From a virus (taxonomy: Duplodnaviria > Heunggongvirae > Uroviricota > Caudoviricetes), in IMG/VR virus record IMGVR_UViG_3300028886_000031, positions 64,001-128,000 of that record: DNA of 64,000 nucleotides. One strand, 5' to 3'. Position 1 is the first letter of the stretch. Every line of letters begins with the position of its first letter. The notes beneath the pieces are model-generated. The model was given only the letters and a program-made list of their open reading frames with translations, was not told where the DNA came from and searched no databases. Of the stretch, positions 3,782-42,100 are shown in pieces. Made by a program: the position numbers and the translations under genes.

Positions 3782-4232
3782 ACTATTCGAGACACTCTCC
3801 AAATCCAATTGTAACTTAACGGAAGAATATAATCCAAAATCTTACGATTGTACGGAATCTTGTCCATGGTATTCTAAATGTTTCTATAATTGTGAATGTC
3901 CACCTCAAAATCCAAGATTACAGGAGTTCTTTGGTGGATGGCAGAAGTATGCTAGATATGATATAAATGATAAGAAATGTGTTTTATCTAGTATAAATTG
4001 TCCAATTATTAACATATTGCATCTAATTAGTCCAAATAAGGTAGATGATATAATTATTTATAGAGTAGCAAAAAAGAATAAGACACAAAAGAAGTATAAT
4101 ATACGATATTATTGTGTACAGGGCAATAAAACCAAACTGTGTGCTGATATCGTAGAATTGAATAATTTTATGGATAAACGTTGCAGTTATTCAGGAAGAA
4201 AAATTAATCTGGAGGATTTTAAAAATGTTTGA
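3768..4232 (+). CDS. Cys-rich hypothetical protein
   Basis: ATG at 3768 after GGAGG; CTESCPWYSKC..CEC cluster. Confidence 0.6.
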   Translation: MNSCKLFETLSKSNCNLTEEYNPKSYDCTESCPWYSKCFYNCECPPQNPRLQEFFGGWQKYARYDINDKKCVLSSINCPIINILHLISPNKVDDIIIYRVAKKNKTQKKYNIRYYCVQGNKTKLCADIVELNNFMDKRCSYSGRKINLEDFKNV

Positions 4233-4674
4233 ATGTAGTAAAACCTATAAGTTTGAATACGCACATCAGCTATTCACATCATATACAAATTTATGTCATG
4301 AAACAATTCATGGTCATAGTGGAAAAGTAAGAATTACTTTTAGAAATAATGAAAATGCCACATTAGATAAAGATAACATGGTCATAGATTTTGGTAAGAT
4401 TAGTGCTACCATAAAAGAATCACTAATGAGTAAATATGATCATGCATTGTTTATCCCAAAGGATTTTCCAAAGGAATATTTGGATATACTTGGTAAATAT
4501 AATAAAAGACTTACAATTACGGATAAGAATCCAACTGCTGAACAATTTGCGTATGATATATTCTATTTTGTAAAGCATATTTTACAATCAGAACCAAATA
4601 ATTGGATGATTTGCGTTACTAAAGTAGAGTTTTGGGAAACGGAATCTGGCTGTGCTACATATCAGGAAAGATAA
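4225..4674 (+). CDS. queD: 6-carboxy-5,6,7,8-tetrahydropterin synthase (PTPS/QueD)
   Basis: FEYAH, C..IHGHS, MVIDFG, DH, NPTAE and WETE motifs of the T-fold PTPS family. Confidence 0.92.
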   Translation: MFECSKTYKFEYAHQLFTSYTNLCHETIHGHSGKVRITFRNNENATLDKDNMVIDFGKISATIKESLMSKYDHALFIPKDFPKEYLDILGKYNKRLTITDKNPTAEQFAYDIFYFVKHILQSEPNNWMICVTKVEFWETESGCATYQER

Positions 4675-8446: not shown

Positions 8447-8593
8447 AGATATTAAATCTACTTAAAATGTTCTCTAGATGTTAAATATATTAATATATGA
8501 ATAAGAATACAATTCTCTGGACATTCATATTACTTGTTATTTTTATAACTGGTGGTTGTGTGTCCAGAGAAAAGTACATTCCTTGGTGGGCTA

Positions 8594-9259
8594 ATGAAGT
8601 TCGAAATTGATAATGATGTAGATGTTTCTTTTTCTGGAAGACATTCTAGGGGAACAACTCCAGTCGAATATAGACATCCAAACATTATTGATTTAAGAGA
8701 TTTTTGTTTGCCAACGGATAATCAAGGGAATACACCACATTGTGTTGGCTATACTGTTGGTGGTTTTTTGGAGGTACATAATTGGAAGAACACACATATA
8801 CCTAGACAAATAAATGCAGAGAAATTATATGATTTAGGTAGAAAATATAAAGCTGATACAAGAACTGGAACTCGATTGGAATATGTTTTATCCCAATTGA
8901 AGACAGATGGGTTCATAAAAGGAACTCCAAAAAAGATAGAGACAAAAGATATAAAATATTTTATTCACCAGTATGGTGTTGTGATGTGTGCATTTTACAT
9001 TACAAATGAATGGTATTCGTTAGATAGAAAATATAGAATTAAAGAAAAGAAAACTCCTAAAACTCTCGGTGGTCATTGTGTTTTAGGATGTGGATATTGT
9101 GAGGATGGTTTGTATATACAGAATTCATGGGGGTATAAGAAGTGGGGTAATTATGGTTTTGCCATTGTACCTTGGAATTTGGTATATAAACAATTATCAT
9201 ATTCCATGTGTGTCGATGGAATTGAACTATCCAATATCACGGAGTTTTTTAATGCTTAA
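8594..9259 (+). CDS. Papain-like (family C1) cysteine peptidase
   Basis: DLR..PTDNQG.TPHCVGY (oxyanion Q and catalytic C), GGHCVLGCGY (H), IQNSWG..WG.YG (N). Confidence 0.9.
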   Translation: MKFEIDNDVDVSFSGRHSRGTTPVEYRHPNIIDLRDFCLPTDNQGNTPHCVGYTVGGFLEVHNWKNTHIPRQINAEKLYDLGRKYKADTRTGTRLEYVLSQLKTDGFIKGTPKKIETKDIKYFIHQYGVVMCAFYITNEWYSLDRKYRIKEKKTPKTLGGHCVLGCGYCEDGLYIQNSWGYKKWGNYGFAIVPWNLVYKQLSYSMCVDGIELSNITEFFNA

Positions 9260-10184
9260 AGCTGATCCTAAAGTTCTAGAGAAAATAAAGAAACTATTAG
9301 ATCACCATGCTGGAAGTTTAAAAATAAATTCAGAACATGAAGCATTCTGTGCTTTGGAACTTGCTAAATCCATGATGAAGAAATATCATCTGGATATGAT
9401 GCAAGTGAAAGAGTCATTTGAGGAATCTGATATAACACATAGACCAGTTGATAAATGTTCTGTTTACAAGATTCCAATATGGATGTGTAATCTGATCAAT
9501 ACTGTGAATAATATTTGTAATTGCAGTTGCATATTGGAGAAGGTGCCACAAAGTAGTGGTTACATTCACATAAGCATTGTTTTTGTGTGTCTGGCTGCTG
9601 ATTTAGATAAAGTAACACATTTCTATAATTTCCTTAAGAAAACGGCGTATAAATTAGCGAATAAACACGTTAAAGAGATACATGGAAATTATACGAATTG
9701 GAGATCTTTTTGCGAAGGATTTACTTCTAGACTTTTAGAAAGGTCAAGAGTTTTCAACATAGATATTAGTGAAAATACATGGAAAGAAAGTTCGGACGAA
9801 ACAAGAGATGCTGAGGAATTCAGCGCTGATGATTTCGAAGAGTCCGAAGAGGAAGTAGATGATGATTTTGAAGAATTTGAGAGTGAAGATGATGTATCTG
9901 TGGATGAAGTTCCAGAAAAGAAGAGTGAAATAGATACAGAAATTGCTAAGTATGAACAAAACACAGATATACAATTATACGAATATTTAAGAAACGTTAA
10001 GAAGAAAATAGATTCTTATATCAAAAAGAACATGAATAACATACGATATGAGAATGTAAATAGAAAGTCTAATGTACTTAAGACTTCATATATGATTGGT
10101 AGAGAACAAGCTGAAAACACTAACTTGAAGTTCATTGATAAATCACATCAACTGACTTCGAAAACAAAGGAACAAAAACAATGA
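9252..10184 (+). CDS. DUF2786-like protein with acidic insert
   Basis: N-terminal EKIKKLL..SEHEA..AL..AK.MMKKY.LD and downstream SFCEGF, typical of DUF2786 proteins; long D/E tract. Confidence 0.7.
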   Translation: MLKADPKVLEKIKKLLDHHAGSLKINSEHEAFCALELAKSMMKKYHLDMMQVKESFEESDITHRPVDKCSVYKIPIWMCNLINTVNNICNCSCILEKVPQSSGYIHISIVFVCLAADLDKVTHFYNFLKKTAYKLANKHVKEIHGNYTNWRSFCEGFTSRLLERSRVFNIDISENTWKESSDETRDAEEFSADDFEESEEEVDDDFEEFESEDDVSVDEVPEKKSEIDTEIAKYEQNTDIQLYEYLRNVKKKIDSYIKKNMNNIRYENVNRKSNVLKTSYMIGREQAENTNLKFIDKSHQLTSKTKEQKQ

Positions 10185-10780
10185 ATACTGATGTCTGCTC
10201 AAAAATATTGCGTGTTGCTACATATGCTATGTCTGCAACGGCACTTGCCCAGAAGCTTGGTAAATCTAAGGGTTATATGATTGCTGATGAGATCCGTCAC
10301 CTTGTTGACAATGGTCAGCTGGTTGAGAATACGTCTGGCGCGTATCCTACTTACAAGGTTGCTGAGCAGCCTGTGAGCACCCGCGCTTGTCAGACGACTG
10401 CTCGTGATACGACTGTTGTTGCTGACACCGTAACTACGCCGGCTGCCAATAAGCTTCCGGAAGGATATGTTGTCTCGAAGGCTGGTAAGCGCAAGTCGGA
10501 TAACAAGGTTGGCCGTAAGGTCACTCTTCCGAATGGCACCAGCTATTTTGTTGAGAATGGTGATACTCTTGTAAATATCAACGATGGTGATTACGTGAAG
10601 ATTATCACCTCGAAGAATGGAGCTGTCCCTGAGGCTCAGATTTCTACTCTCATTGAGCAGTATACTCACGAGCGTTCTATGACCGCTTACACCATTAAGC
10701 ACAAGTTTGGATCCATCGGCCGTGATCAGGCTGTTGGTGTTCTTGACTATAAGATCACTAAGTGCAACAAGGCTGCATGA
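10181..10780 (+). CDS. wHTH-fused candidate ubiquitin-like (beta-grasp) modifier
   Basis: N-terminal HTH-like segment (SATALAQKLG..IRHLVDNGQL), Thr-rich linker, and a C-terminal ~70-aa strand-strand-helix-strand pattern ending in a small-residue tail (YKITKCNKAA). Lies directly upstream of E2/E1/JAB genes and has distinct GC-richer codon usage. The ORF is secure; the Ubl call is inferred. Confidence 0.5.
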   Translation: MNTDVCSKILRVATYAMSATALAQKLGKSKGYMIADEIRHLVDNGQLVENTSGAYPTYKVAEQPVSTRACQTTARDTTVVADTVTTPAANKLPEGYVVSKAGKRKSDNKVGRKVTLPNGTSYFVENGDTLVNINDGDYVKIITSKNGAVPEAQISTLIEQYTHERSMTAYTIKHKFGSIGRDQAVGVLDYKITKCNKAA

Positions 10781-10803
10781 TTTAATAGCTAGCAGCTAAA
10801 CTG

Positions 10804-10840
10804 ATTGCCGGACCTACGTATTAAACGTGGGTCCGGCAAT
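10804..10840 (+). terminator. 16-bp stem-loop between the candidate Ubl and E2 genes
   Basis: ATTGCCGGACCTACGT-ATTAA-ACGTGGGTCCGGCAAT with one G.U pair; only a weak T tract follows. Confidence 0.7.
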
Positions 10841-10856
10841 TTACTCGGAGAAACAA

Positions 10857-12581
10857 ATGTCAGAAGAAACACCTCAAACAAATAGTCAAGTAATAACTGA
10901 TGTAAAAACTGCACTTGTTAATGTTCTGAGAAATGATGCTTCGTTATGTAATTACGAAAGATTTACGGATTATGGAAAAATAGAAAGGGATAGTTATAAT
11001 GATAAGTATATGTGGACTACAATACAATGTGATTTGAATCATGATAATACAGCTAACAATTCTCAGATTATTAGAATTGTTAATAAAATGGATACGAAGT
11101 TTTTCACTATGCTATTTGGATATAACGGAAGCCCGTCTTCTATAGGTCTAGATAATGGCGTAGCTATTTTATATAGTAATATGTTAATAAATATGCCTTC
11201 TACGTCACGTGATAGACGTCAAACGAGAGTCGATGATTGTCTAAAGAGTTTAATTAGTAGAATGGTAAATTTGGATTGTACATTTAAAATCAAAGGAACG
11301 TGTTTAACAGCCCTTGATTTTATAGGTAAGAATCCAAATCATACCTCTACTGAAGCTGAATTCACATTTAATCTATATGAATATGTAAAAAAGTTTATTT
11401 TTATTGGAGATAAATGTTATCTACTTGCTGTAATGGATAAATATCATTATATATATGTTAGCCAGAAAACGCTGGAAATTATTTATAAGTTGGATACAAC
11501 TGCTGATAAATCACAATTTAGAGATGCTGTTTTGAAACTGTATGGATATGCTAGTTCTAATTGTTTGTTGATGTTAAATGTCCCAATGGCACAATATATC
11601 ACGAATGATATAACAAATCTCGTTATAAATGATACATTAAAAGATAATGTGTTTGCTGAATTAGATAAAAATGGCTCAAGTGATTTCAGTGAACTTTTTG
11701 AGTATAAATTTAACAATGATGCTGTGACGGATGATTATATCAAGAGTAATATTAAACAAATAATTTATACTTATGTAGATAATTATGTCAAGACATATTA
11801 TTGTTTAAAGGATTTTAGCTTTGTAAGCTTAATAGACAATATAAAGTATAAGATGAAAGGTCTTTATGCTAGCAAGATCAACGAAGCCTTTCGTAACGGA
11901 CTTGTAATATCTAGGGTTTGTCAACGGTGCGGGTGGAATATTTATGACAATAAGACATACCGTGATGTGAGACCGAGTACGATGAACTATAATAACCAGT
12001 ATATATGGAAAGATGTAAATATTATCCCAGATACATGCGTTCTCTATGATACTGATGCTAGAGATTTTGGAATAGATAAGTATAGAAAACTTAATGAAGC
12101 TGGAATTCATAAACTCAGAACCGAATATGGGATTTGTGTTAAAAGATTGTTTATATGTTTAAATGAAGGCACTATGCTATGTATTGGAAAGCATCCTAAT
12201 GTCTCTTCGTCCGGTCAAGTCTGTATGGGAGATATAAAAGGAACAATTGTTTTCCAGGATGTATCAGATGATGTAATAATATCTAACTTAGCAACATGTG
12301 AAAAATTACTGACATGTATTCATTATGCTAGTTCATATACAAGTAGTGGTCAGAATGTATTTACAAATCCAGATTACAGTTTGGACTATAAGAATTTTGT
12401 AAATGGATTTGATTCTGATAAATCGGCAAGAGAAGCTGCAAAGAAAGATGAAAATTTAATAAAGAACGCTGTGCAGTTGGAAGATGACTTTGAAGAAGAA
12501 TCCATGGATTCTTCAGATAATTCTTCGACCGAGCAACAAGGTTCTGGAATAATAGAATCTGATGACTTTGAGGAGATATAA
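10857..12581 (+). CDS. Large protein with C-terminal E2 (ubiquitin-conjugating-like) domain
   Basis: ATG at 10857 after GGAG. HPNVSSSGQVCMGD (12192-12233) matches the E2 HPN[VI]xxxGxxC catalytic signature and is followed by a helix and an acidic tail. Confidence 0.72.
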   Translation: MSEETPQTNSQVITDVKTALVNVLRNDASLCNYERFTDYGKIERDSYNDKYMWTTIQCDLNHDNTANNSQIIRIVNKMDTKFFTMLFGYNGSPSSIGLDNGVAILYSNMLINMPSTSRDRRQTRVDDCLKSLISRMVNLDCTFKIKGTCLTALDFIGKNPNHTSTEAEFTFNLYEYVKKFIFIGDKCYLLAVMDKYHYIYVSQKTLEIIYKLDTTADKSQFRDAVLKLYGYASSNCLLMLNVPMAQYITNDITNLVINDTLKDNVFAELDKNGSSDFSELFEYKFNNDAVTDDYIKSNIKQIIYTYVDNYVKTYYCLKDFSFVSLIDNIKYKMKGLYASKINEAFRNGLVISRVCQRCGWNIYDNKTYRDVRPSTMNYNNQYIWKDVNIIPDTCVLYDTDARDFGIDKYRKLNEAGIHKLRTEYGICVKRLFICLNEGTMLCIGKHPNVSSSGQVCMGDIKGTIVFQDVSDDVIISNLATCEKLLTCIHYASSYTSSGQNVFTNPDYSLDYKNFVNGFDSDKSAREAAKKDENLIKNAVQLEDDFEEESMDSSDNSSTEQQGSGIIESDDFEEI

Positions 12582-12582
12582 A

Positions 12583-12885
12583 ATGAGATATTCAGAGAGG
12601 TGTGTCTCAATAAGACCACATAAAAATTCACAACGGTATTGTCAGGATTTTGAAGTGATAAAATATGATCCAGACGATGATATTGGAAATATAACATATC
12701 AAACGGACACACAGCCAATATTATCGAATGAATTCTGTAAAATTTCGATTGATTGGGATGATAGAAAAATCTATTTAAAATGTATTGATAATAAAGGAAA
12801 TATCTTAATTAAAAAGACTTTAAAAAATAAAGTAGCAACTCCGGCAGTATTGCAACCACAGGAACCTGAAAGTGAGGAATCTTAA
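12583..12885 (+). CDS. Hypothetical protein within the Ubl-system cluster
   Basis: ATG at 12583 after GAGGAG; beta-rich, about 100 aa. Confidence 0.65.
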   Translation: MRYSERCVSIRPHKNSQRYCQDFEVIKYDPDDDIGNITYQTDTQPILSNEFCKISIDWDDRKIYLKCIDNKGNILIKKTLKNKVATPAVLQPQEPESEES

Positions 12886-12887
12886 GA

Positions 12888-13751
12888 ATGTCTAGCGCTG
12901 ATCTCTATAATAGACAAGAAAAATTGCAGCTTATTAATTATGATAATGCTGTTGTAATAGGATGTGGCGGAATAGGAAATTGGGTAGCTTTAGATTTAGC
13001 ATTGTCTGGAATGGTAGGTAGTCTTTATTTGATTGACCCAGATACAATTGAAGAGTCAAATCTAAATAGAACTTTATTTGATTACACGGATATAGGATGT
13101 TATAAAGTAGATTGTGTAACTGATCAAATAATAAGAAGAAGACCAAATCAAATAATAAACAAAATGAAATGTTTTATGAATGATAGTTTAGCGGAGAAAT
13201 TTATAGAGAAACTGTTTAATGGTGATAATTCTTATTATCATACAGATACTGTTTTTGTAGATTGTCGTGATGATATATACACTGATTGTTATCAGTTAAA
13301 TTGCAAACTGTATAAAGTTGGATATGATGGAACGGAGATAACAATAGACGGCAATCCAAGATTAACGGAAGTTCATGGTCAGCGTGGTGGATCATATTCT
13401 GTTACTCCATCTTATGTCGGATCCGCTCAGCTTGCAGCAATTCTTGTTGTAAATGATTTGTTATATCCAAAACATACAGATATGTATAGGCGTGATGGTT
13501 CTAATATGCCAACTAGACATGCTATATACAAATGGGCAAAGAAAGAGGATTTTCCATATATCAATCAGAGACCTTGTTTTGAATTTGATGAAATTGGAAG
13601 GTTAAATGATACAATCAATATCAATGTTTCAGATATTCTTCAGAAATTTATGGAAAATAATCACCAGTATGTTATTCCCAATGAAACTTGGGACAATCTT
13701 CCAAACAAAGTCACAGAGGAGTCTGAAAACAATGGAACAGAACAACAATGA
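12888..13751 (+). CDS. ThiF/MoeB/E1-family adenylating enzyme
   Basis: YNRQ, VIGCGGIG, LIDPDTIEESNLNR, DIG.YK and VDCRD motifs. Confidence 0.92.
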   Translation: MSSADLYNRQEKLQLINYDNAVVIGCGGIGNWVALDLALSGMVGSLYLIDPDTIEESNLNRTLFDYTDIGCYKVDCVTDQIIRRRPNQIINKMKCFMNDSLAEKFIEKLFNGDNSYYHTDTVFVDCRDDIYTDCYQLNCKLYKVGYDGTEITIDGNPRLTEVHGQRGGSYSVTPSYVGSAQLAAILVVNDLLYPKHTDMYRRDGSNMPTRHAIYKWAKKEDFPYINQRPCFEFDEIGRLNDTININVSDILQKFMENNHQYVIPNETWDNLPNKVTEESENNGTEQQ

Positions 13752-14619
13752 GATAGATAATATTTGTCCGAAGATAACTGGGTTTTCTGAATCTACTTCA
13801 GAATCCGAGGAATTGGAAATGTTTGACGATGAAGATCTTATGGAAGCAGAATCTGTAAATGTGACCAGTGATAAAAAATTTGATCCTAAGTCTATTGAAG
13901 TTGGTGAATATATAAACAAGGATATAGTTCCGGTTAAAAGGATTAAATGTATTATTCCATCTAAACTTTTAGATAGTATTAGGGAGATCGAAATAGGTGT
14001 CAATAAGAAATTTGGATCATCTAATGAATTCTCTATATTCATTCATGGTGATTATGATCCGAATGGATATTTGGTTGTTAGTGAGGATTTTTATATTCCA
14101 AAGCAAGTTGTATCTGGTGCATCTGTTCAATATAATGAAGAACCAGAACCACATTATAATGGATGTTTGCATAAGCATCCAGATGGATGTACAAGTTTTA
14201 GTGGAACGGATGAAAAATATATTAATAGCAATTTTGATTTTTCATTGCTATATGTTCAGCAAAAAATATCTAAAGGAATTATTAATATTCATTATGATGG
14301 CATACATAGAATACAATGTGATCTGAATATTCAAATGGATAACGAAAAATGTGTATGCGGAATTAACATTGATAATATAACAAAAAATGTTCCGAAGACT
14401 TATCAATTAAACAGACCTTATAATCCATTGGATGTTCCTACTCTTCCAGGAATGTATTTTCCTGGATTTAATGAAAAAACTGGAAAAGAAACAAAGGAGA
14501 TAATAATGCCGCATGTATATCCAAATGCACTAAATTTAGATGATGAATCAGAACCGGAAACGGATTCTATGGAATTCTTTTCCGATCCGGAATTATATCC
14601 TAACTTGCTAGGTGATTAA
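13732..14619 (+). CDS. JAB/MPN+ metallo-isopeptidase
   Basis: NEFSIF (catalytic Glu), IPKQVV and HKHPDGCTSFSGTD (HxH-x7-S-x2-D JAMM motif). Confidence 0.87.
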   Translation: MEQNNNEIDNICPKITGFSESTSESEELEMFDDEDLMEAESVNVTSDKKFDPKSIEVGEYINKDIVPVKRIKCIIPSKLLDSIREIEIGVNKKFGSSNEFSIFIHGDYDPNGYLVVSEDFYIPKQVVSGASVQYNEEPEPHYNGCLHKHPDGCTSFSGTDEKYINSNFDFSLLYVQQKISKGIINIHYDGIHRIQCDLNIQMDNEKCVCGINIDNITKNVPKTYQLNRPYNPLDVPTLPGMYFPGFNEKTGKETKEIIMPHVYPNALNLDDESEPETDSMEFFSDPELYPNLLGD

Positions 14620-19949: not shown

Positions 19950-22900
19950 ATGAAGATTGATTGGCTCAATATCGATGAGTTCTGTAAGAACTTACCTGAA
20001 GTAACAACATCTAAGATATATTCTAAAAAGATCTTTCATCCAGAAGGATTATTCTCTGAACAGATTTTTGGACCTGTGAAGAGTTATACATGCTCTTGTG
20101 GAATTTATTATGGGCGTTCGAAACATAATACAGTATGTCCAATTTGTGGAACTAAAATAGAGAATAGCAATGTTCGTAGAAAGAACATGGCTAAGATTGT
20201 ATTGCCGTTTGGGGTAATTAATCCAATTATGCTCTTTACAATTAAGAGAGTGAAGTTGGAGATTTATAACATCATCATGAGCATGATCATGGATAATGAT
20301 GTTATGGGTTATTACTTCGACGAGAATAAAGAAAAGTTTATTAAGGTTCTTAAACCTACGTTAGACACAGAAGGAACGGCAATTCCGGATGGAGTAACGT
20401 TATATAGTGGTCCAAAACAGACTTTCGATCTTGTTAAGTTTGAAGCTGAACGTAACATGGAAACGAGTCGTTATTGGAAGTTTATATATGATAGACTTGA
20501 TAATTATTGGATGCATAATATAGGAGTTGTTCCACCAGAGTTTCGTCCAGTATCTAAGAGTAACAATCAACAGATGCGTGACGAGATGAACAAGTTCTAT
20601 TTGAAGATATTGGAATTCAAGGCTGTCAATAAAGATAATCAACTTAATCTCCAGCCGACATCTGAATCTGAGTCAGAACCTGAATCTGTCAATGAGAATG
20701 AAAGTGTTGCTGAGATAGAAAATGTAGAACAAGCTATAGATATGCTTGCTGAAAACATTCAGCATCAGGTAGATGAATCACAACAGACAGAGACTACACA
20801 GACTGTTAATCCAGTTCCTCAGCAGGCTCTAGATGATATTTATAGGTTTAGCTTTAAAAACCTTCAGAATTACATACTTGATCTTTATCAATTTATATTT
20901 GATAAATTCTCTAAGAAATCTGGTCTGATTCGTGGATCTATTCTTGGTAAAAGAATTGACTTTTCTGGTAGATGTGTAATTGATCCGGATCCAAACTTGG
21001 AACTAGATCAGTGCGGAATTCCGTATTTAATGGCACTAGAGTTTTATAAACTTCAAGTTGCTAATAGATTGTTGGAGTTGAAAAACTTCAATGGACATAA
21101 GTTCTACAGATTTGACCCAGTTTTGGATTTCATTGATGAATGTATCGAGAAACATGATTTCTGTTTGTTTGATATTGTAAGTGAAATAGCAAATAATAAG
21201 TTGTTTATATTAAATAGACAGCCAACACTTCATAGAATGGGATTAATGTCATTCCGTTGTGTTGTTCATAAGGATTATGTCATCAAGACGCATCCATTTA
21301 TATGTGAGCCATACAACGCAGACTACGATGGTGATCAGATGGCTGCGTATATTTCATTGTATCCGGAAACGGAACAATCTAATAGAGATCATCTATTTAT
21401 TATGGAGAACTTGATATCACCGTCTACTGGTGATGTATGTTTGTCTGTAAACCAAGATGTTGTTTTGAGTCTGTATCTTCTAACACAAGACAATGCAACT
21501 CCAAAGACAACATATTCGGGACCTAAGATTTGGCCTGGAAAGAAAGATGGTGATGTTCTTGAAACATATGAAGGCAGGATAGAGTTCAATAACATTTTAC
21601 CGAGTAACTTCCCATTCTTTAATGAGGAACTCACAAAAGGAAAAATACATAGTCTTTTGAATGTTATATGTAAAAACTATGATAAAGATACAATCAAGAA
21701 AGTACTTGATAACATCAAGGTTCTTGGTTTTACAAAGACTACACAGATTGGTTCTACGTTCTCGTTAAAGAATCTAGCAACGGATGATAGAATTGCAGAA
21801 CATATAACTAAGATTGTAGATGATAATAAGAAGTCTCTGGCACAAAAGTTCTTTGAACTTGCTGAATCACCATTGAAGAAGGAAGTCGAAAATAACTTCC
21901 CGTATGCTAACTTTATTAGATCTGGATCACGTGGTACTTGGGATCAAGCTGACCAGTTAATATGGTGTCGTGGATATGTATCTAACTCTAAAGGACAAGT
22001 TGTGGAGACTCCAATTAAACACAATCTTGTAACTGGTCTAACTAGAGATGAGTTCTTAACATCTTGTTATGGTGCTCGTAAGGCACTTTTGGATGTAGCG
22101 TTAAATACTGCTGTGTCTGGTTATCTAACTCGTAAACTTGTCTATGGACTTGTTAATGTAGAGTTGGATGAAAACTGTGATGATTGTGGAACAGATCAAT
22201 ATATGGAACTAACAATTCCTGAGGAATTGACAGATGAAAAGATAGAGCAATTAACAGCTGATATTGCTGATCCTAAATTGAAGCAACTTAAGATAGATGA
22301 ACTTAAGATTAAGAAGGCTAACAGCATTAGTCCAATAAAACTTGCTAAATCTTTAAGATATAGATGGTATAAGGACGAGGATGGTCAGCTTAAGATGGTT
22401 ACTGAAAATGGATTCAAGAATCTCTTAGGAAAGACAATTAAACTTCGTTCGCCCATCTTCTGTAAGAATCCGAGAATATGTAAGAAATGCTATGGTGATT
22501 TGTACAAACAACTTCATAGTAAATATATCGGTGTTATTGCTGCACAAGCACTTGGTGAGGTTGCAACTCAGCTCACGTTGAGAACATTCCATGTGTCTGG
22601 AGTTGCCCAAATGAACAAGGGTCAGCAGGATGATACACAACAAGATATTATTAACGATCTTACGAACGTGAAGAAGATTCTTCATGGTGGTAATGATTGG
22701 AATACAACTGGTTATAAAGATATGATTATGAATCTGTTCCATATCTATTCAAACCATAAAACTCTAATGTTAAATCATTTTGAGTTAGCTGTCTCCCAGC
22801 TAATGAGATCTGGTTCTAGACGCTGGAGAAATGATCCGAATAGAGATGAACATGAACCTAATATAGTATCTATTGAGAAAGTTCCATCACTTGAATCTCT

Positions 22901-23012
22901 ATTCTTGGCACTAGCTTTCTCAAAGCCATATGTTTATATTATAGGTGCTATTATGGGCAATGCCCAAACAACAGATGGTATTCTAGAAAAAATGCTTATA
23001 AACAAAGTCTAA
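19950..23012 (+). CDS. rpoC: Multisubunit DNA-directed RNA polymerase beta' subunit
   Basis: GLFSEQIFGP, CSCG..CPIC zinc site, VPPEFRP, LGKRIDFSGR, LNRQPTLHR, catalytic YNADYDGDQM, bridge helix SGYLTRKL, trigger loop GEVATQLTLRTFH. Confidence 0.97.
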   Translation: MKIDWLNIDEFCKNLPEVTTSKIYSKKIFHPEGLFSEQIFGPVKSYTCSCGIYYGRSKHNTVCPICGTKIENSNVRRKNMAKIVLPFGVINPIMLFTIKRVKLEIYNIIMSMIMDNDVMGYYFDENKEKFIKVLKPTLDTEGTAIPDGVTLYSGPKQTFDLVKFEAERNMETSRYWKFIYDRLDNYWMHNIGVVPPEFRPVSKSNNQQMRDEMNKFYLKILEFKAVNKDNQLNLQPTSESESEPESVNENESVAEIENVEQAIDMLAENIQHQVDESQQTETTQTVNPVPQQALDDIYRFSFKNLQNYILDLYQFIFDKFSKKSGLIRGSILGKRIDFSGRCVIDPDPNLELDQCGIPYLMALEFYKLQVANRLLELKNFNGHKFYRFDPVLDFIDECIEKHDFCLFDIVSEIANNKLFILNRQPTLHRMGLMSFRCVVHKDYVIKTHPFICEPYNADYDGDQMAAYISLYPETEQSNRDHLFIMENLISPSTGDVCLSVNQDVVLSLYLLTQDNATPKTTYSGPKIWPGKKDGDVLETYEGRIEFNNILPSNFPFFNEELTKGKIHSLLNVICKNYDKDTIKKVLDNIKVLGFTKTTQIGSTFSLKNLATDDRIAEHITKIVDDNKKSLAQKFFELAESPLKKEVENNFPYANFIRSGSRGTWDQADQLIWCRGYVSNSKGQVVETPIKHNLVTGLTRDEFLTSCYGARKALLDVALNTAVSGYLTRKLVYGLVNVELDENCDDCGTDQYMELTIPEELTDEKIEQLTADIADPKLKQLKIDELKIKKANSISPIKLAKSLRYRWYKDEDGQLKMVTENGFKNLLGKTIKLRSPIFCKNPRICKKCYGDLYKQLHSKYIGVIAAQALGEVATQLTLRTFHVSGVAQMNKGQQDDTQQDIINDLTNVKKILHGGNDWNTTGYKDMIMNLFHIYSNHKTLMLNHFELAVSQLMRSGSRRWRNDPNRDEHEPNIVSIEKVPSLESLFLALAFSKPYVYIIGAIMGNAQTTDGILEKMLINKV

Positions 23013-23027
23013 TGAAAGGATGAAATA

Positions 23028-26000
23028 ATGATAAGGATTCCTTCTTTTGAATTGTCTGATTTAAATGCTTTTAACTTTCGTGAGTATGAATGGGATTCTA
23101 ACACGATTATAAATGTTATAAAACAGATACTTCAGAATTCAGAGAAATATAACATTACCGTCAAGAATGTCTCAATAGAGGAAAAACCAGAAAAGAGTAA
23201 CTCCAGTGAGATCAGAAAGACGTTATCAAAGATTCTTAAAATAGATCTTGTTTATCATAATGGTGACACAAGTATAGATATTCCGTTGGACTATGAAATA
23301 CCTTGGCTAATTAACAACCATTTCTATATTGGTGGTAATTACAAGGTAGCAATATATCAACTTTATGACAAGCCAATTATTAATGTTCAGAAAAAGAACA
23401 TCATTAAAATAAAGACTACGTTGTTTCAATCGTTTAACGTAGAAAAGAAGAAACCAACGAAAAAGAGTAAGATAAATTTTGAGGCACAGTTCTTCAATAA
23501 GAAATTTCCTTATGTTTATCTGCTAATAGCTAAACATGGAATCGATTGGTGTAAACAGACATTTAAGTTGGATGATAACTTTGAATATATTGATGATGCT
23601 GAATATGCTAATAAAACGGAAGAGGTTCAACTACTTCGTAGTGATATGAAGTATGTTCTTTCTAACGCTGCTATTGATAAAGCCCGTCTATTTAGGACAG
23701 ATTTTCCAAAAATGACGGATGCTGAATTTGTACAAAATATGGATCTAATTACAGATCTGGATATTTTCACAAGTAGGTATTTAAGTACTGGAAACATTAT
23801 TGATGAGTTCCTTGCTATATATGAGAATGGAACTTATGATGATTCAGATTACAGCAATAAGAGACTTCGTTTCTCAGAGCAGGTGATATATTGCTGGGTT
23901 ATCAAAGATCTTTATAGTCTGTTTAACCAGATTAAGACAAAGAGCATTAAGAAATTGAGATTCAATATAAACAATAAGGTTATTCTACAGAATGCCAATG
24001 TTTCAAGTATTGTTCAGTTCGACACATGTATTAATCCATTGTATGAATTAGCTATATTGTCTAGAACATCTCTATCTGGTCCTGGTGGATTTAAGAAAGA
24101 GAATGTTCCTACGAACATGAGGGATATTCATAGTTCAATGCTTCATATAATAGATCCGTCTGATACTGGTGACCGTGATGGCTGCGGAACAATTCAATAT
24201 ATTGTACCTTCTGCTAAATTTAAGGAAGATGGTTGTTTAGAAAGTTGTGGACCGAATTCTCCGGTTAACTCTGTGTCTACATCTTTTGTACCTCTTTGTG
24301 AACATGATGACCCTGTTAGACTTCAAATGAGTTCATCTCAGCAACGCCATGCTGTAATGTTGCAGAATTTCGACTCTGCAATTATTCAGTCTGGCATTGA
24401 GGGAATGTATTCTAACCATACATCTTTCTTATATACAGCAAAGGATGATGGAACAGTCATCTATAAAAATCGCGACATTGTAATTGTTAAATATAATAAC
24501 GGCACATTCCAGACATTACATATTGGATATAGAAAACTATATATTAGTGTTCTAGATTTCTATCATGTGTATTATAATGTTGGTGATACATTTAAGAAGG
24601 GTGATATTATTGCTGAGTCTAATTTCATGAAGAGTGGAAAAATCTGTCTCGGCAAGAACCTGAGAGTATGTATAACTCCTTATTATGGTCTAAACTACGA
24701 GGATGCGATTGTGCTATCTGAAAGGGTTAGACGTGAAAAGATGTTTACATCTGTTCACTATAAAGAGATTGTAATAGAAGTTCCGAAGAATAAGGTTCTG
24801 TTGAATATCACGGATAACAAAGATACCTATAAGGTAATTCCAAGTATTGGTGATCAGGTTAAACGTGGCGAGGTAATAGCTAAACTCAAAACAATTGATA
24901 AAGAGCGTTTCCCGAGCGTAATCTTTGAGAAGTGTTCTGAAGTTAAGAGTGATGAGGATGGTGAGGTAATAGATGTTAAGGTATATGCTAACAAATGGAA
25001 TACTGACTTTGAGCAATTTAATGATTTCGTTAAGAGTTCAATAGCTCAGAATAAGATAGAAAGGGATAACCTTGTCAAGGAAGTTTCTGAATATCTAAAT
25101 AGTGACGAACTTGAACAACTTGTATCTACATTGGATATTAATAAATCCGAGAAAAACAATTACAAGTACAAAGGTGATGTCATTGATGGAGTTAGAATTG
25201 AATTAACAATTAAATATGACCGTGATCTTCAAATAGGTGATAAACTGGCAAATAGACATGGTAATAAAGGAACAATTTCAAGGTTTGTTCCCGATGAGTT
25301 AATGCCTGTAAATCAGGAAGATGGAACTCGTGCCGATATTGTGATTAATCCTCTTGGTATTATTTCACGTATGAATGTCGGTCAGGTATTTGAATGTCAT
25401 TTGTCCGAAGCTGTTATGAACCTTCGTAAGAAGTGTCATGTAATGCTTCATGGTGCAAATGACACAGTAGTAATAAAGGATCCTGATATAGATGGTGTAA
25501 AGAATTATATTAATGGATTTATTGATATAATCGATTGTACAGAAAATAAAACATATTCGACTCAAGCTAAAGAAATTATTAATGGGTTGAATTTTATGCA
25601 ATTGTGTTCATTGGTTAAAAACTTTACTGTAATTCAGCCTCCATTCCAGAGCATTGGAACGAAGGAACTTCAGAAAGCTATGGAATATACAAACACTAAA
25701 TATGAGGTTCGTGTATATGATCCTGTATGCAAAAAGGAAATCAAGAACGACCTTGTATTCGGTTGGCTCTATTATATGAAACTAAATCATATTTCCCAAG
25801 ATAAGATTGCCTATAGAGGAATTGGACCATATTCGGCTAAAACAAATCAGCCGTTGTGTGGCAAATCCCGTAAAGGTGGTCAAAGACTTGGCGAGATGGA
25901 AATATGGGCTGTAATAGCACATGGTGATGAAAAGAATTTAAATGAGTTCATTACAACAAAATCAGATAGTATTCAATTGAGGAACAAGTATATTTCCCAT

Positions 26001-26243
26001 TGTATTGGAAACGAGGAACTCCTCGCAGACCAGGACGATGATAAGGTTCCACAATCACTTAGGTTGTTGGAAAGTTGCTTAAAGTCCATAGGTATAGATT
26101 TTAAGATCAACAGTGAGAAGACTGATGATGAAACCCAAGAGGTGACAGATACGGATCCGATCTTGGATGATCTTATGAATGAGGAAGATATGGAAGTCCT
26201 CGATGATACAAATGATACATACGATAGTGATGATAAGGAGTAA
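23028..26243 (+). CDS. rpoB: Multisubunit DNA-directed RNA polymerase beta subunit
   Basis: SLSGPGG, RDIHSS, EHDD..R.QM.SSQQRHA, GLNYEDAIV, GDKLANRHGNKG, NPLGIISRMN.GQ, YMKLNH, GGQRLGEMEIWA. Confidence 0.97.
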   Translation: MIRIPSFELSDLNAFNFREYEWDSNTIINVIKQILQNSEKYNITVKNVSIEEKPEKSNSSEIRKTLSKILKIDLVYHNGDTSIDIPLDYEIPWLINNHFYIGGNYKVAIYQLYDKPIINVQKKNIIKIKTTLFQSFNVEKKKPTKKSKINFEAQFFNKKFPYVYLLIAKHGIDWCKQTFKLDDNFEYIDDAEYANKTEEVQLLRSDMKYVLSNAAIDKARLFRTDFPKMTDAEFVQNMDLITDLDIFTSRYLSTGNIIDEFLAIYENGTYDDSDYSNKRLRFSEQVIYCWVIKDLYSLFNQIKTKSIKKLRFNINNKVILQNANVSSIVQFDTCINPLYELAILSRTSLSGPGGFKKENVPTNMRDIHSSMLHIIDPSDTGDRDGCGTIQYIVPSAKFKEDGCLESCGPNSPVNSVSTSFVPLCEHDDPVRLQMSSSQQRHAVMLQNFDSAIIQSGIEGMYSNHTSFLYTAKDDGTVIYKNRDIVIVKYNNGTFQTLHIGYRKLYISVLDFYHVYYNVGDTFKKGDIIAESNFMKSGKICLGKNLRVCITPYYGLNYEDAIVLSERVRREKMFTSVHYKEIVIEVPKNKVLLNITDNKDTYKVIPSIGDQVKRGEVIAKLKTIDKERFPSVIFEKCSEVKSDEDGEVIDVKVYANKWNTDFEQFNDFVKSSIAQNKIERDNLVKEVSEYLNSDELEQLVSTLDINKSEKNNYKYKGDVIDGVRIELTIKYDRDLQIGDKLANRHGNKGTISRFVPDELMPVNQEDGTRADIVINPLGIISRMNVGQVFECHLSEAVMNLRKKCHVMLHGANDTVVIKDPDIDGVKNYINGFIDIIDCTENKTYSTQAKEIINGLNFMQLCSLVKNFTVIQPPFQSIGTKELQKAMEYTNTKYEVRVYDPVCKKEIKNDLVFGWLYYMKLNHISQDKIAYRGIGPYSAKTNQPLCGKSRKGGQRLGEMEIWAVIAHGDEKNLNEFITTKSDSIQLRNKYISHCIGNEELLADQDDDKVPQSLRLLESCLKSIGIDFKINSEKTDDETQEVTDTDPILDDLMNEEDMEVLDDTNDTYDSDDKE

Positions 26244-26246
26244 ATT

Positions 26247-26897
26247 ATGGAAGAAATGACAGTTGATATGGTTAAAGATATGATTCTTAAAGGTGCCAGC
26301 AAAGAGAAAATTAAAGAAGCTCTTGAAAAGATATATCCTGGCGCTATGGAGAAGATAAAAGAGCTAATAGCCATTATTGGTGATGATCCTGAAAGGGAGG
26401 GTCTACAAGACACTCCCTTCAGGGTTGTTAAAAGTTGGCTCGAGATATATGGTGGTTATAAATGCAATAATACAAAGCTGGATACGTCATTTGAGGATGA
26501 CACAGGTGATTTTGATGAGAGTCAGATTATAATGTGTAGGAATATAGATTTCTATTCTACATGTGAGCACCATATGATTCCTTTTCATGGATATTGTCAT
26601 ATTGGTTATCTTCCGAATAAGAAGGTCATTGGTGTATCTAAGTTAGTAAGAATTACAGAATATTTTGCAAAGAGACTTCAAATTCAAGAGAAGCTCTGTA
26701 CACAGATTGCAGATTATATACAGAAAATTCTGGAACCACAAGGTGTTGGAGTTATTATAACTGCTGAGCATCTCTGTATGAAAGCCAGAGGAGTTCGTAA
26801 TGCAACAAGCAATATGGTAACATCACAGATGCGTGGTAAATTTAGAACACAGATAGAGACTAGACAAGAGTTCTTATCACTAATTGGTCTTAAGTGA
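26247..26897 (+). CDS. folE: GTP cyclohydrolase I
   Basis: REGLQDTP.RV, STCEHHMIPF, IGVSKL.R, RLQIQE and HLCM.ARG motifs. Confidence 0.96.
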   Translation: MEEMTVDMVKDMILKGASKEKIKEALEKIYPGAMEKIKELIAIIGDDPEREGLQDTPFRVVKSWLEIYGGYKCNNTKLDTSFEDDTGDFDESQIIMCRNIDFYSTCEHHMIPFHGYCHIGYLPNKKVIGVSKLVRITEYFAKRLQIQEKLCTQIADYIQKILEPQGVGVIITAEHLCMKARGVRNATSNMVTSQMRGKFRTQIETRQEFLSLIGLK

Positions 26898-39162: not shown

Positions 39163-42100
39163 TTATTTTACAATGCCTACACTTTCAATCATTCTATATG
39201 TCTGATCTACATCGTAATTATTAATAACTGTTCCGCCATGTTGTGATCCACCGGATGTAATATTTTTAACTATGTTTATATTACTGCTATTAATTGCTTG
39301 AATAGATTTTTGTAATTGTTTTTCAATTTGTTCACTTGTTCCTTCTGTTGTTCTGGATTGTGAAACAGTAGACATGGATTCTGTGTTAAGTGCCATTATT
39401 CTAGGATTAACATTATAATTTGGAACAATTTCACCATTAATTATAGCAACGCCTTTTTGAATTCCATTTGAAACACTAGCACCAACATTACTAATAGCAT
39501 TTCCAGCAGTATTAAAAGTACTTTGAATTCCATTCATAATGGAATTTCTAGCATTATTTGTACTATTAACTATTCCTGTGATGCCATTAGATATAGAAGA
39601 TCCTGTTTTATTAATAATGTTAGATCCAGAATTTAACATATTACTAAAGAGTGACCCAAATGAACTAGATGTTGTAGATATAGCTTGTGATACTTTCGAT
39701 CCCATATCGTTATTTGCACCAGAAACGTTATTACTGCTATTAATTATCTGCATATGTTGATTATATATATCTTGTGCATATTTAGATAATATTTGATTAC
39801 GACTATTTGTGATCATCTTAGGAGTCCAATCTGGATGGTCCTTCTTTAATTTTTCGTCTAGTAACTTCTGATAGTCTCTTATTGAATATAATGATCTAGT
39901 TCCAGTTTTCTTAGCACTATATTTTGAAGCAATTGATTTCACATTTTCCTGGAGATATTTGAAATATTCTTGTTCATCTGATTGTGAAATTTGCGCTACG
40001 GATTTAGCACTACTTGAAAGTGAACTGCTGCTAGAATTAGAACTATTAGATTCTGAACTTGTAGATGCTTGTATATTTGATCTGAATTCAGATACAGCTA
40101 CATCACTATTAGGTGCTGTCTTCGATTCAGCATTAATACTTGTTATGTTAGAAGTAGAATTATTATTTGTAACTTCGTTTTTAACATTATTTGCTGTATT
40201 CGATACTGATGTGGATGAAGAAGAACTGCCCGTCATCTTAGCCATTTCTTTCTCATAGATTTCTCTTTCCTTCTCTAATGCACTTCTATCATTATTACCT
40301 CCGGCTAAATATGCTGTTCCTTTCTCCGTGAACATTAGTCTATTTGGACCGCCTTTATAACCAAGACTATCCAAAACTAACATCTCGAAATTGGAATTTA
40401 ATTTTCTAATTAAAATATCGGAGATTGTTCCGCGATTATATTCTGGGAATTGTAATAATAACTCTCTATTGTCATCTAAAAATTTCTTAGTAGCATTTTC
40501 TTTAGCTTCAAAATAATTTTGTGATGATTGATATTCTTTAAATGCTTCTGATGCTGACTCTTTTGCTAATTTACTTAATTCTCTAATTTTAGTTGCTGTA
40601 TTACCTTTGAACTTAGTTACTTTTGTTGATACATCTGTATAACCACCTTCAGCATATCTTTCTATTTCAAATTTAGATATTTCTGGATTTTTATATAGAT
40701 TATCTGTAATCGAAGATATAGAACTAGAATTACTACTAGAACTTATAAAATCGTATATATTATTAGATAAGCCACCTTCGGCAAATTGTGCAACATTATT
40801 TAGATTGTCAGCAACTAGAGAAGATATTGTATTTATAGCATTACTTGTGGAATTTGTAGATGTTGAGCCACCATTAGCAAAATAAGTTCTTGGTTTAAAT
40901 TCTTTCATGACGGCTTTATAACTATCTCCGTCAAATTTTAAATCATAAATTTGTGGAGAACCAGCAGCTTTTAATATTTCAAGATAGTTTTCATGAAATG
41001 ATGCTTTTCCAGTTCCTGTTGTTATATTATTTATGAATTCATAAGGATCTTTTCTACCCATTTTTATAGCTAAGTCGTATAATTGTTTTTTCATGAACAT
41101 TTTAGCTATATCATTTTCTATAGAAAATTTACCAGTATCACCACCAACGGAATCATCGTGATTAAAATCTCTACTTATGATATTTCTTAAAACATCTTCG
41201 TTAAATTCTTTTGACATGAGATAAAGTATTCTATCATTATCTCTCATATCATCAGCATTTAAACCATTTTCTTCAGCTATAGAATATCTTCTATCTCTAA
41301 GAACTTCATTTAAGAAATCTCTTGTAGGTAAATCACCACCATATTTTTCTTGTACAGCTTTTCTAACATATTCTGGATAATTATAAGATGACCAATTATG
41401 TGGAACAATTTCTGTAGATGATGTATTTAAAACATATCCTGGTGCTACAGGATGTAAAAATGCAGTAGCTGGATCTTGAGACTTTTTCCATTGTCTAATA
41501 CGATATTCTTCATCTAATTTAGCCATAAGTCTATTCGATGTTATACCAGCATTTTTTCTTCCGCCAACATTATATAAACAATAATAATATTTCTGTTCTA
41601 ATTCTGAATCGGAGAGTTTTTCAATATCTTTCTCTGTAAGACCATTATGTGTTTGATTTAATATCCAATCATTTGATTTCTTAGTTTGTGTAGATCTTGG
41701 ACTATTTTTTGTTAAAGAATTTTGTGTAATATTAGTCTTTGAATTATCAATGGAATTTGAAGATGAGGATACTAACTTTCCATTTCTTGTGTGTTCTTCA
41801 GAAATTGTTGTTACATCATAATTTATAAATGTTGGCTTGTTAGGATCTGGAAGGCCTTCTGTTAAACCTCCTTTAGCAAATTTCTTTGTATTTTTATCTT
41901 TCTTTTTTTCTGGACTATTAACTAGCAATCCACCAGCAGCTTCAATTACACCGACTTGGTTAGCCATAGCGTCAGCTATTCCTTTTTCTTGTTCATATCT
42001 CTTTTCATCCATTGGATTTCCATCGATATCTCTTGCTTCGGCTTCAGATCTCAATTCATCTGAAGCATTTGATGCCAATTCTGATAAAGGTGCTATTGGT

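Follow-up and report, generated by a model that had tools for sequence, protein, structure and literature searches.

Does a large phage run a protein-tagging system of its own, built around a ubiquitin-like (Ubl) modifier that ends in alanine and carries a nucleic-acid-binding type of domain? The question is raised by one gene in a 64,000-nucleotide stretch (here the window; G000:C1:64001-128000) from a virus record of 321,650 bases with a completeness rating of 100%; for this gene, a sequence-only reading had proposed a winged helix-turn-helix (wHTH) fused to a beta-grasp modifier with a non-glycine end, so that conjugation could tether targets to DNA. The record has a GC content of 0.31 and 15 tRNA genes, and most public runs that contain it carry the label bovine gut metagenome. 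The open reading frame proved real, with the claimed anatomy and 199 amino acids ending YKITKCNKAA-stop, and its ATG overlaps the stop codon of the upstream gene (10181-10184); a similar-looking gene lies upstream of the orthologues at two other viral loci, L216 and L291 (neighbours read by eye). Genes near the tag encode a topoisomerase subunit, a helicase, SbcD, SbcC, RNA polymerase subunits, DNA ligase, PTPS and GTP cyclohydrolase. The tag gene lies beside the phage's own E1, E2 and JAB genes (Table 1), and a protein-tagging system operated by the virus itself is therefore likely.

Table 1. Features of the tag locus, with positions in the window.
Feature	Position	Strand	Remarks
DUF2786/DUF7168 protein	9090..10184	+	translationally coupled upstream neighbour
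wHTH-Ubl fusion gene (P0001), 199 aa	10181..10780	+	single copy in genome
Winged helix-turn-helix domain, aa 3-61	10187..10363	+	Zalpha/Zbeta-like shape
Thr-rich flexible linker, aa 62-91	10364..10453	+	pLDDT <50 at 64-84; length varies (alignments)
Conserved beta extension with Lys-rich hairpin, aa 92-127	10454..10561	+	pLDDT about 92-95
Predicted ubiquitin-like (beta-grasp) domain, aa 128-199	10562..10777	+	from secondary-structure order and hhalign
Tail N196-K197-A198-A199	10766..10777	+	A199 is the putative conjugation residue
17-pair RNA hairpin after the tag stop codon	10803..10841	+	-33.7 kcal/mol, z -7.5, 0/200 shuffles
E2 (UBC-like), long N-terminal part, 574 aa	10857..12581	+	HPN 12192-12200, Cys 12222-12224
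107-aa ORF	12562..12885	+	small ORF here also in L048 and L216, not L291
E1 (ThiF family), single domain, 287 aa	12888..13751	+	Pfam ThiF E 1.1e-18; nucleotide-binding motifs intact
JAB/JAMM peptidase, HKH..S..D motif	13606..14619	+	Pfam Prok-JAB E 0.0018, below cut-off

To describe the architecture of the protein, we built an AlphaFold2 model on an alignment of 54 rows (all 60 family proteins except P0024, P0033, P0034, P0039, P0046 and P0060), which reached a mean pLDDT of 85.5. The proposed order of wHTH, linker, hairpin and strand-strand-helix-strand-strand is present throughout this model: the wHTH is predicted to comprise helices 3-12, 19-25 and 31-43 and strands 47-50 and 57-60; the beta extension, in which G95, Y96 (or Phe) and P117 are nearly invariant, holds the strands of the Lys-rich hairpin (110-115 and 121-125); and the C-terminal domain is predicted to fold as strands 128-133 and 138-143, helix 151-164 and strands 170-179 and 185-194, with pLDDT 80-95 over 128-199. 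An earlier model from 7 rows gave the C-domain a pLDDT of 45-55, so this domain was not read from it.

The family comprises 60 proteins including the query, collected by three protein searches and one profile search. A tail of the form [NDS]K[AGP][AG] followed by 0-3 residues is kept by 56 of the 60; the search profiles included the tail and may favour matches that keep it, and many of the best-matching stretches end well before it. The tails are NKAA (33), DKGA (13), NKAG (6) and one each of NKGA, NKPA, NKGG and SKAG, so that the last residue of the motif is Ala in 48 and Gly in 8. Forty of the 56 stop exactly at the A199 position, the other 16 carry 1-3 extra residues, and of the four proteins lacking the motif, three are short and the other is a repeat protein, apparently unrelated. 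K197 is invariant (54/54), and the tail persists down to 22% overall identity. In an unrooted tree of the 56 C-terminal stretches, the Gly label needs 2 changes, of either direction, as compared to a shuffled mean of 7.6. A terminal Gly-Gly of the ThiS/MoaD type is absent from the tag and occurs in one of the 56 tails.

Three of the roughly 60 members come with genomic context (the window, L216 and L291), and in all three the order is upstream gene, wHTH-tag, E2, E1, JAB and SbcD. The L216 orthologue (hhalign probability 99.3) ends IDKGA, and that of L291 (E 4.9e-61) ends KHNKAA. Scans for further loci with the tag protein or its alignment returned none, or L216 only. A DNA pattern for the tail gave 8 matches, with L291 as the one true member; we set aside four that were motif-ending ORFs without a cassette hit and three without such an ORF.

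Similar cassettes were collected by E1 scans of viral, metagenomic and genome sequences (three of the scans taking the best 80 loci each). Dozens of viral loci have a plain Ubl of ~90 aa in the slot of the tag, followed by an E2-like gene, E1 and JAB, and in many relatives the genes ahead of the block look, by eye, like those of a clamp loader and a sliding clamp. The E2 motif is present in 53 and the JAB motif in 52 of 61 distinct tag-bearing loci, some of them incomplete. A seed profile of nine small Ubls matched SUMO2, with a best E of 6e-4 for a tandem construct and about 0.3 for single chains. For the 59 distinct plain tags, a pattern placed Gly in register in 45, Lys in 8 and Ala in 1, and reading by eye of the five it missed gave Gly 4 and Ser 1; four of the eight Lys tags continue with Gly or Ala, so their register is ambiguous. 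None of the 59 ends in GG. L218, a plain viral Ubl of 80 aa, ends PYEKAA. Most of the E1 loci from genome contigs (best 80) were MoeB/ThiF-like metabolism genes and were set aside, and against GenBank phage records the E1 gave weak matches only.

The link between tag and plain Ubls came from profile comparison. With the 54-row profile, aa 128-199 matched a 56-sequence viral Ubl profile end to end in hhalign (probability 83.8, E 8e-6, 66 columns), with NKAA aligned on the D-x-A-G of the plain tags; the segment from strand 3 to the last strand is shorter in the tag. This was the only profile to make the connection, at moderate probability, and single-sequence and shallow-profile comparisons of the C-domain with viral Ubls were not significant (one p of 0.003 over 20 columns). 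Given this alignment, Ala199 is most likely the counterpart of one terminal Gly and not of a GG pair. Thus the claim of a non-glycine terminus stood, while the contrast with GG fell away: related viral tags have one terminal Gly (x-A-G), and the contrast is one of Ala versus Gly at a single position. Provided that P0001 is a modifier, we regard A199 as probably the residue used.

Two other fates of this end deserve consideration, both improbable in our view: firstly, that the Ubl is activated with its mature end at A198 (K-A), after JAB has trimmed A199; secondly, that its activation leads to a non-protein product, that is, a thiocarboxylate or a linkage to a small molecule, lipid or nucleic acid. 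Thirteen relatives end DKGA, with Gly at the A198 position, and several viral Ubls end K-G or K-A plus an extension, which suits the first; however, the NKAG, SKAG and NKGG relatives have their Gly at the A199 position, the exact stop there in most tails fits A199 better, and a D or N at -3 is common to YDVAG, KDARG and YEKAA. The second finds an echo in base-modification-type genes of the genome (PTPS, GTP cyclohydrolase), whereas the Cys E2 and the JAB point to conjugation and not to sulfur transfer. The PTPS (QueD-like) and GTP cyclohydrolase genes lie at window positions 4225-4674 and 26247-26897 and suggest 7-deazaguanine DNA modification.

Structure and family searches bore mainly on the N-terminal half. 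Every match listed by Foldseek and VIA for the model covers aa 1-69, and because the wHTH filled these lists (as it did that of the PDB sequence search), the missing beta-grasp row is no evidence either way. Pfam, PHROGs and NCBIfam assigned the tag to no family; a DUF5013 match (E 0.0016, under the Pfam cut-off) and two PHROG rows (E 0.01-0.05) were judged chance, and a FAT10 match (E 0.77) was out of register and discounted. The ESM Atlas gave wHTH-type leads only (under 0.9) and nothing for aa 88-199. No shorter stand-alone relative appeared among 1145 candidates of 30-106 aa, and no second Ubl-like segment below E 1.6 among 2416 six-frame segments of the genome searched with both viral Ubl profiles.

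Codon usage and a structure after the stop codon set the tag gene apart and recur in other Ubl genes. The visibly GC-richer codon usage noted from the sequence was borne out among the 329 genome ORFs of at least 100 aa: GC is 0.47 (median 0.30, rank 3), GC3 0.46 (median 0.21, rank 6), the AAG share of Lys codons 0.89 (median 0.27, rank 3) and the share of C-ending codons 0.35 (median 0.17, rank 14). The Ubl gene is GC-richer than its own E1 in 51 of 57 loci. RNA hairpins similar to that of the window follow 44 of 57 Ubl genes as compared to 7 of 57 E1 genes (z below -2 against 40 mononucleotide shuffles; window and L216 included), and the hairpin is likely a terminator or attenuator, or a stabiliser, that sets the tag above the level of the enzymes. 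Promoter and terminator scans performed at chance level and missed it. Contigs from RNA libraries cover the tag gene in four of four runs (at most 3 samples, 2 studies), with long matches of X18 and X21 within 9985-10811 and contig ends at 10757 (X3), 10765 (X4) and 10811 (X18); we take them as a weak hint of transcription, as contigs give no level and DNA carry-over was uncontrolled. Missing cover over other parts of the cassette was not read as low expression.

Could the protein be a bystander, an abundant phage nucleoid or regulatory protein merely beside the cassette, while the E1, E2 and JAB act on a host tag or counter Bil or CBASS? A beta-grasp superposition was not obtained, since the wHTH filled the structure-match lists; E1-JAB pairs occur with neither Ubl nor E2 nearby in L002, L006, L013 and L064; and the available text on Borg JAMMs proposes them as anti-SAMP enzymes (PMC12660748). 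Yet the tail is kept to such low identity, exchanges Ala for Gly at its last position and bears extensions, and the profile match runs end to end in a gene that shares its slot and its hairpin with plain Ubls; we therefore consider a bystander very improbable. The modifier claim is supported by the place of the gene in the cassette, its profile match to viral Ubls, the conserved tail and the shared hairpin and codon bias; the beta-grasp fold is a prediction from the order of secondary structures. We conclude that P0001 is very probably a ubiquitin-like modifier.

The neighbouring enzymes carry the motifs expected of their families. In 56 aligned E1s of such cassettes, R9, the GxGGxG glycines, D50, N58, R61, K73 and D128 are invariant. 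Tyr170 (13395-13397), assigned to the crossover by sequence position, is Tyr in 54 of them, whereas a Cys in the crossover segment (150-174) occurs in one, which is not the E1 of the window; fifty retain C126 of the DCxD motif, which may be an alternative nucleophile. The E2, for which the ORF finder gave a start at 10827, carries HPNVSSSGQVCMG. It matched no library entry itself, and Pfam UQ_con was found in four of ten viral members, that of the window not being among the four; a profile of its stretch and nine others matched eukaryotic E2s (best E 1.7e-5) with Cys on Cys, and HPN..C is invariant in all ten. Its ~440 aa ahead of the core (window 10857-12100) matched no family. The E2s of L216 and L291 are long as well (501 and 622 aa), and such N-terminal parts may choose targets in place of an E3. 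The JAB of the window matches that of L001 (BLASTP E 2e-7). A papain-like ORF (Peptidase_C1, E 0.012) lies two genes upstream of the tag at window 8552-9259; it might encode a further deconjugating enzyme, but L216 has no such gene at the corresponding place.

Gene order, domain layout, tail conservation and enzyme motifs, all directly observed, are the basis of the mechanism that we propose, whose catalytic steps we infer throughout. On balance we favour a phage-owned E1-E2-JAB system that tags proteins via Ala199, in which the wHTH possibly holds the targets on nucleic acid. The E1 would adenylate Ala199; the tag would pass to Tyr170 of the E1 as an oxyester, by analogy with Bub, and then to the E2 cysteine as a thioester; the E2 would place it on target lysines without an E3; and the JAB would trim the 1-3 residue extensions of relatives and remove the tag. 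The RNA hairpin and codon bias may together provide a large excess of tag over enzymes. The least supported steps come last: the wHTH may grip the nucleic-acid backbone through K30, R54 and Y58 without sequence choice, and tagged proteins may be gathered at phage DNA, most plausibly replication or recombination proteins or those of host defence. The gene neighbourhood suggests replication and recombination proteins as targets.

How does this arrangement compare with known systems, as described in the available portions of the cited papers? Like type I/II Bub, the window has a minimal ThiF-type E1 with an invariant crossover Tyr and no crossover Cys (BubCD uses its one invariant crossover Tyr, Y370) and a JAB gene, the JAB of Bub being known to process its Ubl (PMC11601596); Bub Ubls also bear varied N-terminal domains (10.1101/2024.11.21.623966). 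Unlike Bub, whose E2 has Ser-His and whose genes include BubAB, BubCD and BubBD fusions, the phage E2 has HPN..Cys (10/10) and the genes are separate, no DUF6527 (BubE) Pfam match was found in 22 neighbouring proteins, and the tag is virus-encoded, Ala-ended and fused to a wHTH. With Bil (BilABCD) it shares four separate genes for Ubl, Cys E2, JAB and E1 and no recognised E3 (PMC11601596; 10.1101/2024.11.21.623966); it differs in its E1, a single 287-aa adenylation domain without the IAD-AAD-CYS layout or crossover Cys, in being carried by the phage and not by the host, and in the Ala terminus and wHTH fusion. The N-terminal domains of Bil and Bub Ubls are described as N/G-rich, coiled-coil or DUF1508, and the portion available names no wHTH (10.1101/2024.11.21.623966). 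The cassette is thus one that resembles Bil and Bub in its working and fails the defining features of both. A hand-over from a Tyr-E1 to a Cys-E2 is not among the mechanisms described in those portions of the cited papers.

An Ala end has a precedent in type II CBASS, where conjugation by Cap2 proceeds via a C-terminal Gly or Ala, is reversed by a JAB (Cap3) and involves an attached functional domain (PMC10097602). CD-NTases encoded in Cap2/Cap3 operons have Gly or Ala as their last residue, the E. cloacae enzyme with an Ala end is conjugated, and Gly-to-Ala in the E. coli system lowers but keeps conjugation, according to the text available of that paper, so the Ala terminus of the tag is less odd than it appears. 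In contrast to CBASS, the phage modifier is beta-grasp-like with a wHTH and not a nucleotidyltransferase, and its E1 and E2 are unfused. PRTRC (NCBIfam TIGR03735-03736) likewise places Ubl, E2, ThiF and JAB genes on a mobile element; however, the E1 of the window scores 21.7 bits against a cut-off of 144.75 (TIGR03736), and tag, E2 and JAB match no PRTRC model. Within the available portions of the literature, the phage link between Ubl and JAB is the lambdoid tail-assembly set (PMC1779556), stand-alone ThiF occurs on archaeal elements (PMC13444090), and the terms 'JAB' and 'Ubl' are absent from the part available of PMC7824862. A literature search that covered few subscription papers found no phage-encoded Ubl-E2-E1-JAB block or wHTH-Ubl modifier.

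What, then, would the wHTH contribute? Its fold in the model is compact and Zalpha/Zbeta-shaped, with MarR/ArsR wHTHs within 1 Z unit. The best match is 1xmk, the second Z-domain of ADAR1, which is not known to bind Z-DNA, and the next-best sequence match is the RPA32 C-terminal wHTH (E 0.038). Asn and Tyr of Zalpha helix 3 read Z-form nucleic acid. At the positions that map to them (aa 35 and 39), Asn occurs in 1 of 54 members and Tyr in none; in contrast to the Zalpha/Zbeta domains of ADAR1, ZBP1, PKZ and CyHV-3 ORF112, the tag wHTH thus lacks this pair. The recognition helix (helix 3) has a net negative charge in 48 of 54 aligned members, and the net charge of the whole domain ranges from -6 to +8. 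Conserved residues are T20, G27, K30, G53, R54 and Y58; position 30 is K/R in 54/54, position 54 R/K in 42/54 and position 58 Y/F in 54/54, at spots where wHTH domains usually contact the backbone. Six members (P0031, P0039, P0042, P0046, P0047 and P0054) have two wHTH copies.

These features cut both ways for the proposed tethering to DNA, which the acidic helix makes a weaker idea and the conserved K30, R54 and Y58 sustain; the tag wHTH might equally bind nucleic acid or not. A rather unlikely alternative keeps the same tag chemistry and makes the wHTH a protein-docking module, as in RPA32 and ESCRT-II, with no DNA involved; the module would bring in another protein, for example the RNA polymerase of the phage, SbcCD or a protease of the host. 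The acidic helix 3, the rank of RPA32 directly after ADAR1 and a best match not known to bind Z-DNA agree with docking, whereas the residues kept at the usual backbone-contact places do not, and the tandem copies in six members suit binding to a polymer. Equally doubtful is the fullest version of the phage scheme, in which a family of giant phages runs a relay from Ala-adenylate through E1 Tyr oxyester to E2 Cys thioester and a Zalpha-like, nucleic-acid-binding tag ties proteins to phage DNA or RNA; the tag would then be a localisation code and not a mark for degradation or blocking.

A tag with a built-in wHTH would relocate proteins through covalent marking. The bacterial E1-E2-Ubl-JAB systems of the cited papers serve, in the portions available, to defend the host against phage; in the present case all components are viral, and the set is common among large phages. 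The tag also varies at the one residue considered invariant (Gly, Ala, possibly Lys or Ser). Two questions become accessible with four small proteins: natural Ala/Gly orthologue pairs bear on the need of ubiquitin-type tags for a terminal Gly, and the pairing of a Tyr-E1 with a Cys-E2 on the mixing of oxyester and thioester steps.

The survey yielded several further observations. Plain Ubls ending Y-[YN]-E-A-K plus TAG were found at L056:1642-1863, L088:4663-4920 (L209 is the same contig), L208:570-881 and L211:3781-4047; they have no Gly or Ala after the Lys, their relatives in L212 and L210 continue with G or A, and they represent either Lys-terminated tags or amber read-through. The viral Ubls at L019:3378-3959 and L210:4552-4989 have C-terminal extensions of about 55-70 aa, Cys-rich in L210, which a JAB would have to release. 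A second viral group (L232, L243, L251, L254, L256, L263, L266, L274 and L283) has Ubl-like ORFs of ~73 aa ending N-[QRKST]-K-A, mostly extended, beside a different E2-like gene and an E1; these nine ORFs have no detectable homology to the tag family (probability 0.2), and L232 has an E1 with a Cys-bearing loop, while no JAB motif was flagged there. E1-JAB pairs follow an HNH-like ORF in L002, L006, L007, L013 and L064 with no E2 or Ubl directly upstream, and their partners may lie elsewhere in those genomes. In the phage genome itself, there are apparently two RNA polymerase beta-prime-like genes (window 19950-26243 and G000:C1:48567-51632; 1020 and 1021 aa, with similar starts), and the minus strand of the window encodes, at 39163-51225, an ORF of 4020 aa that is tape-measure-like judging from its size and position.
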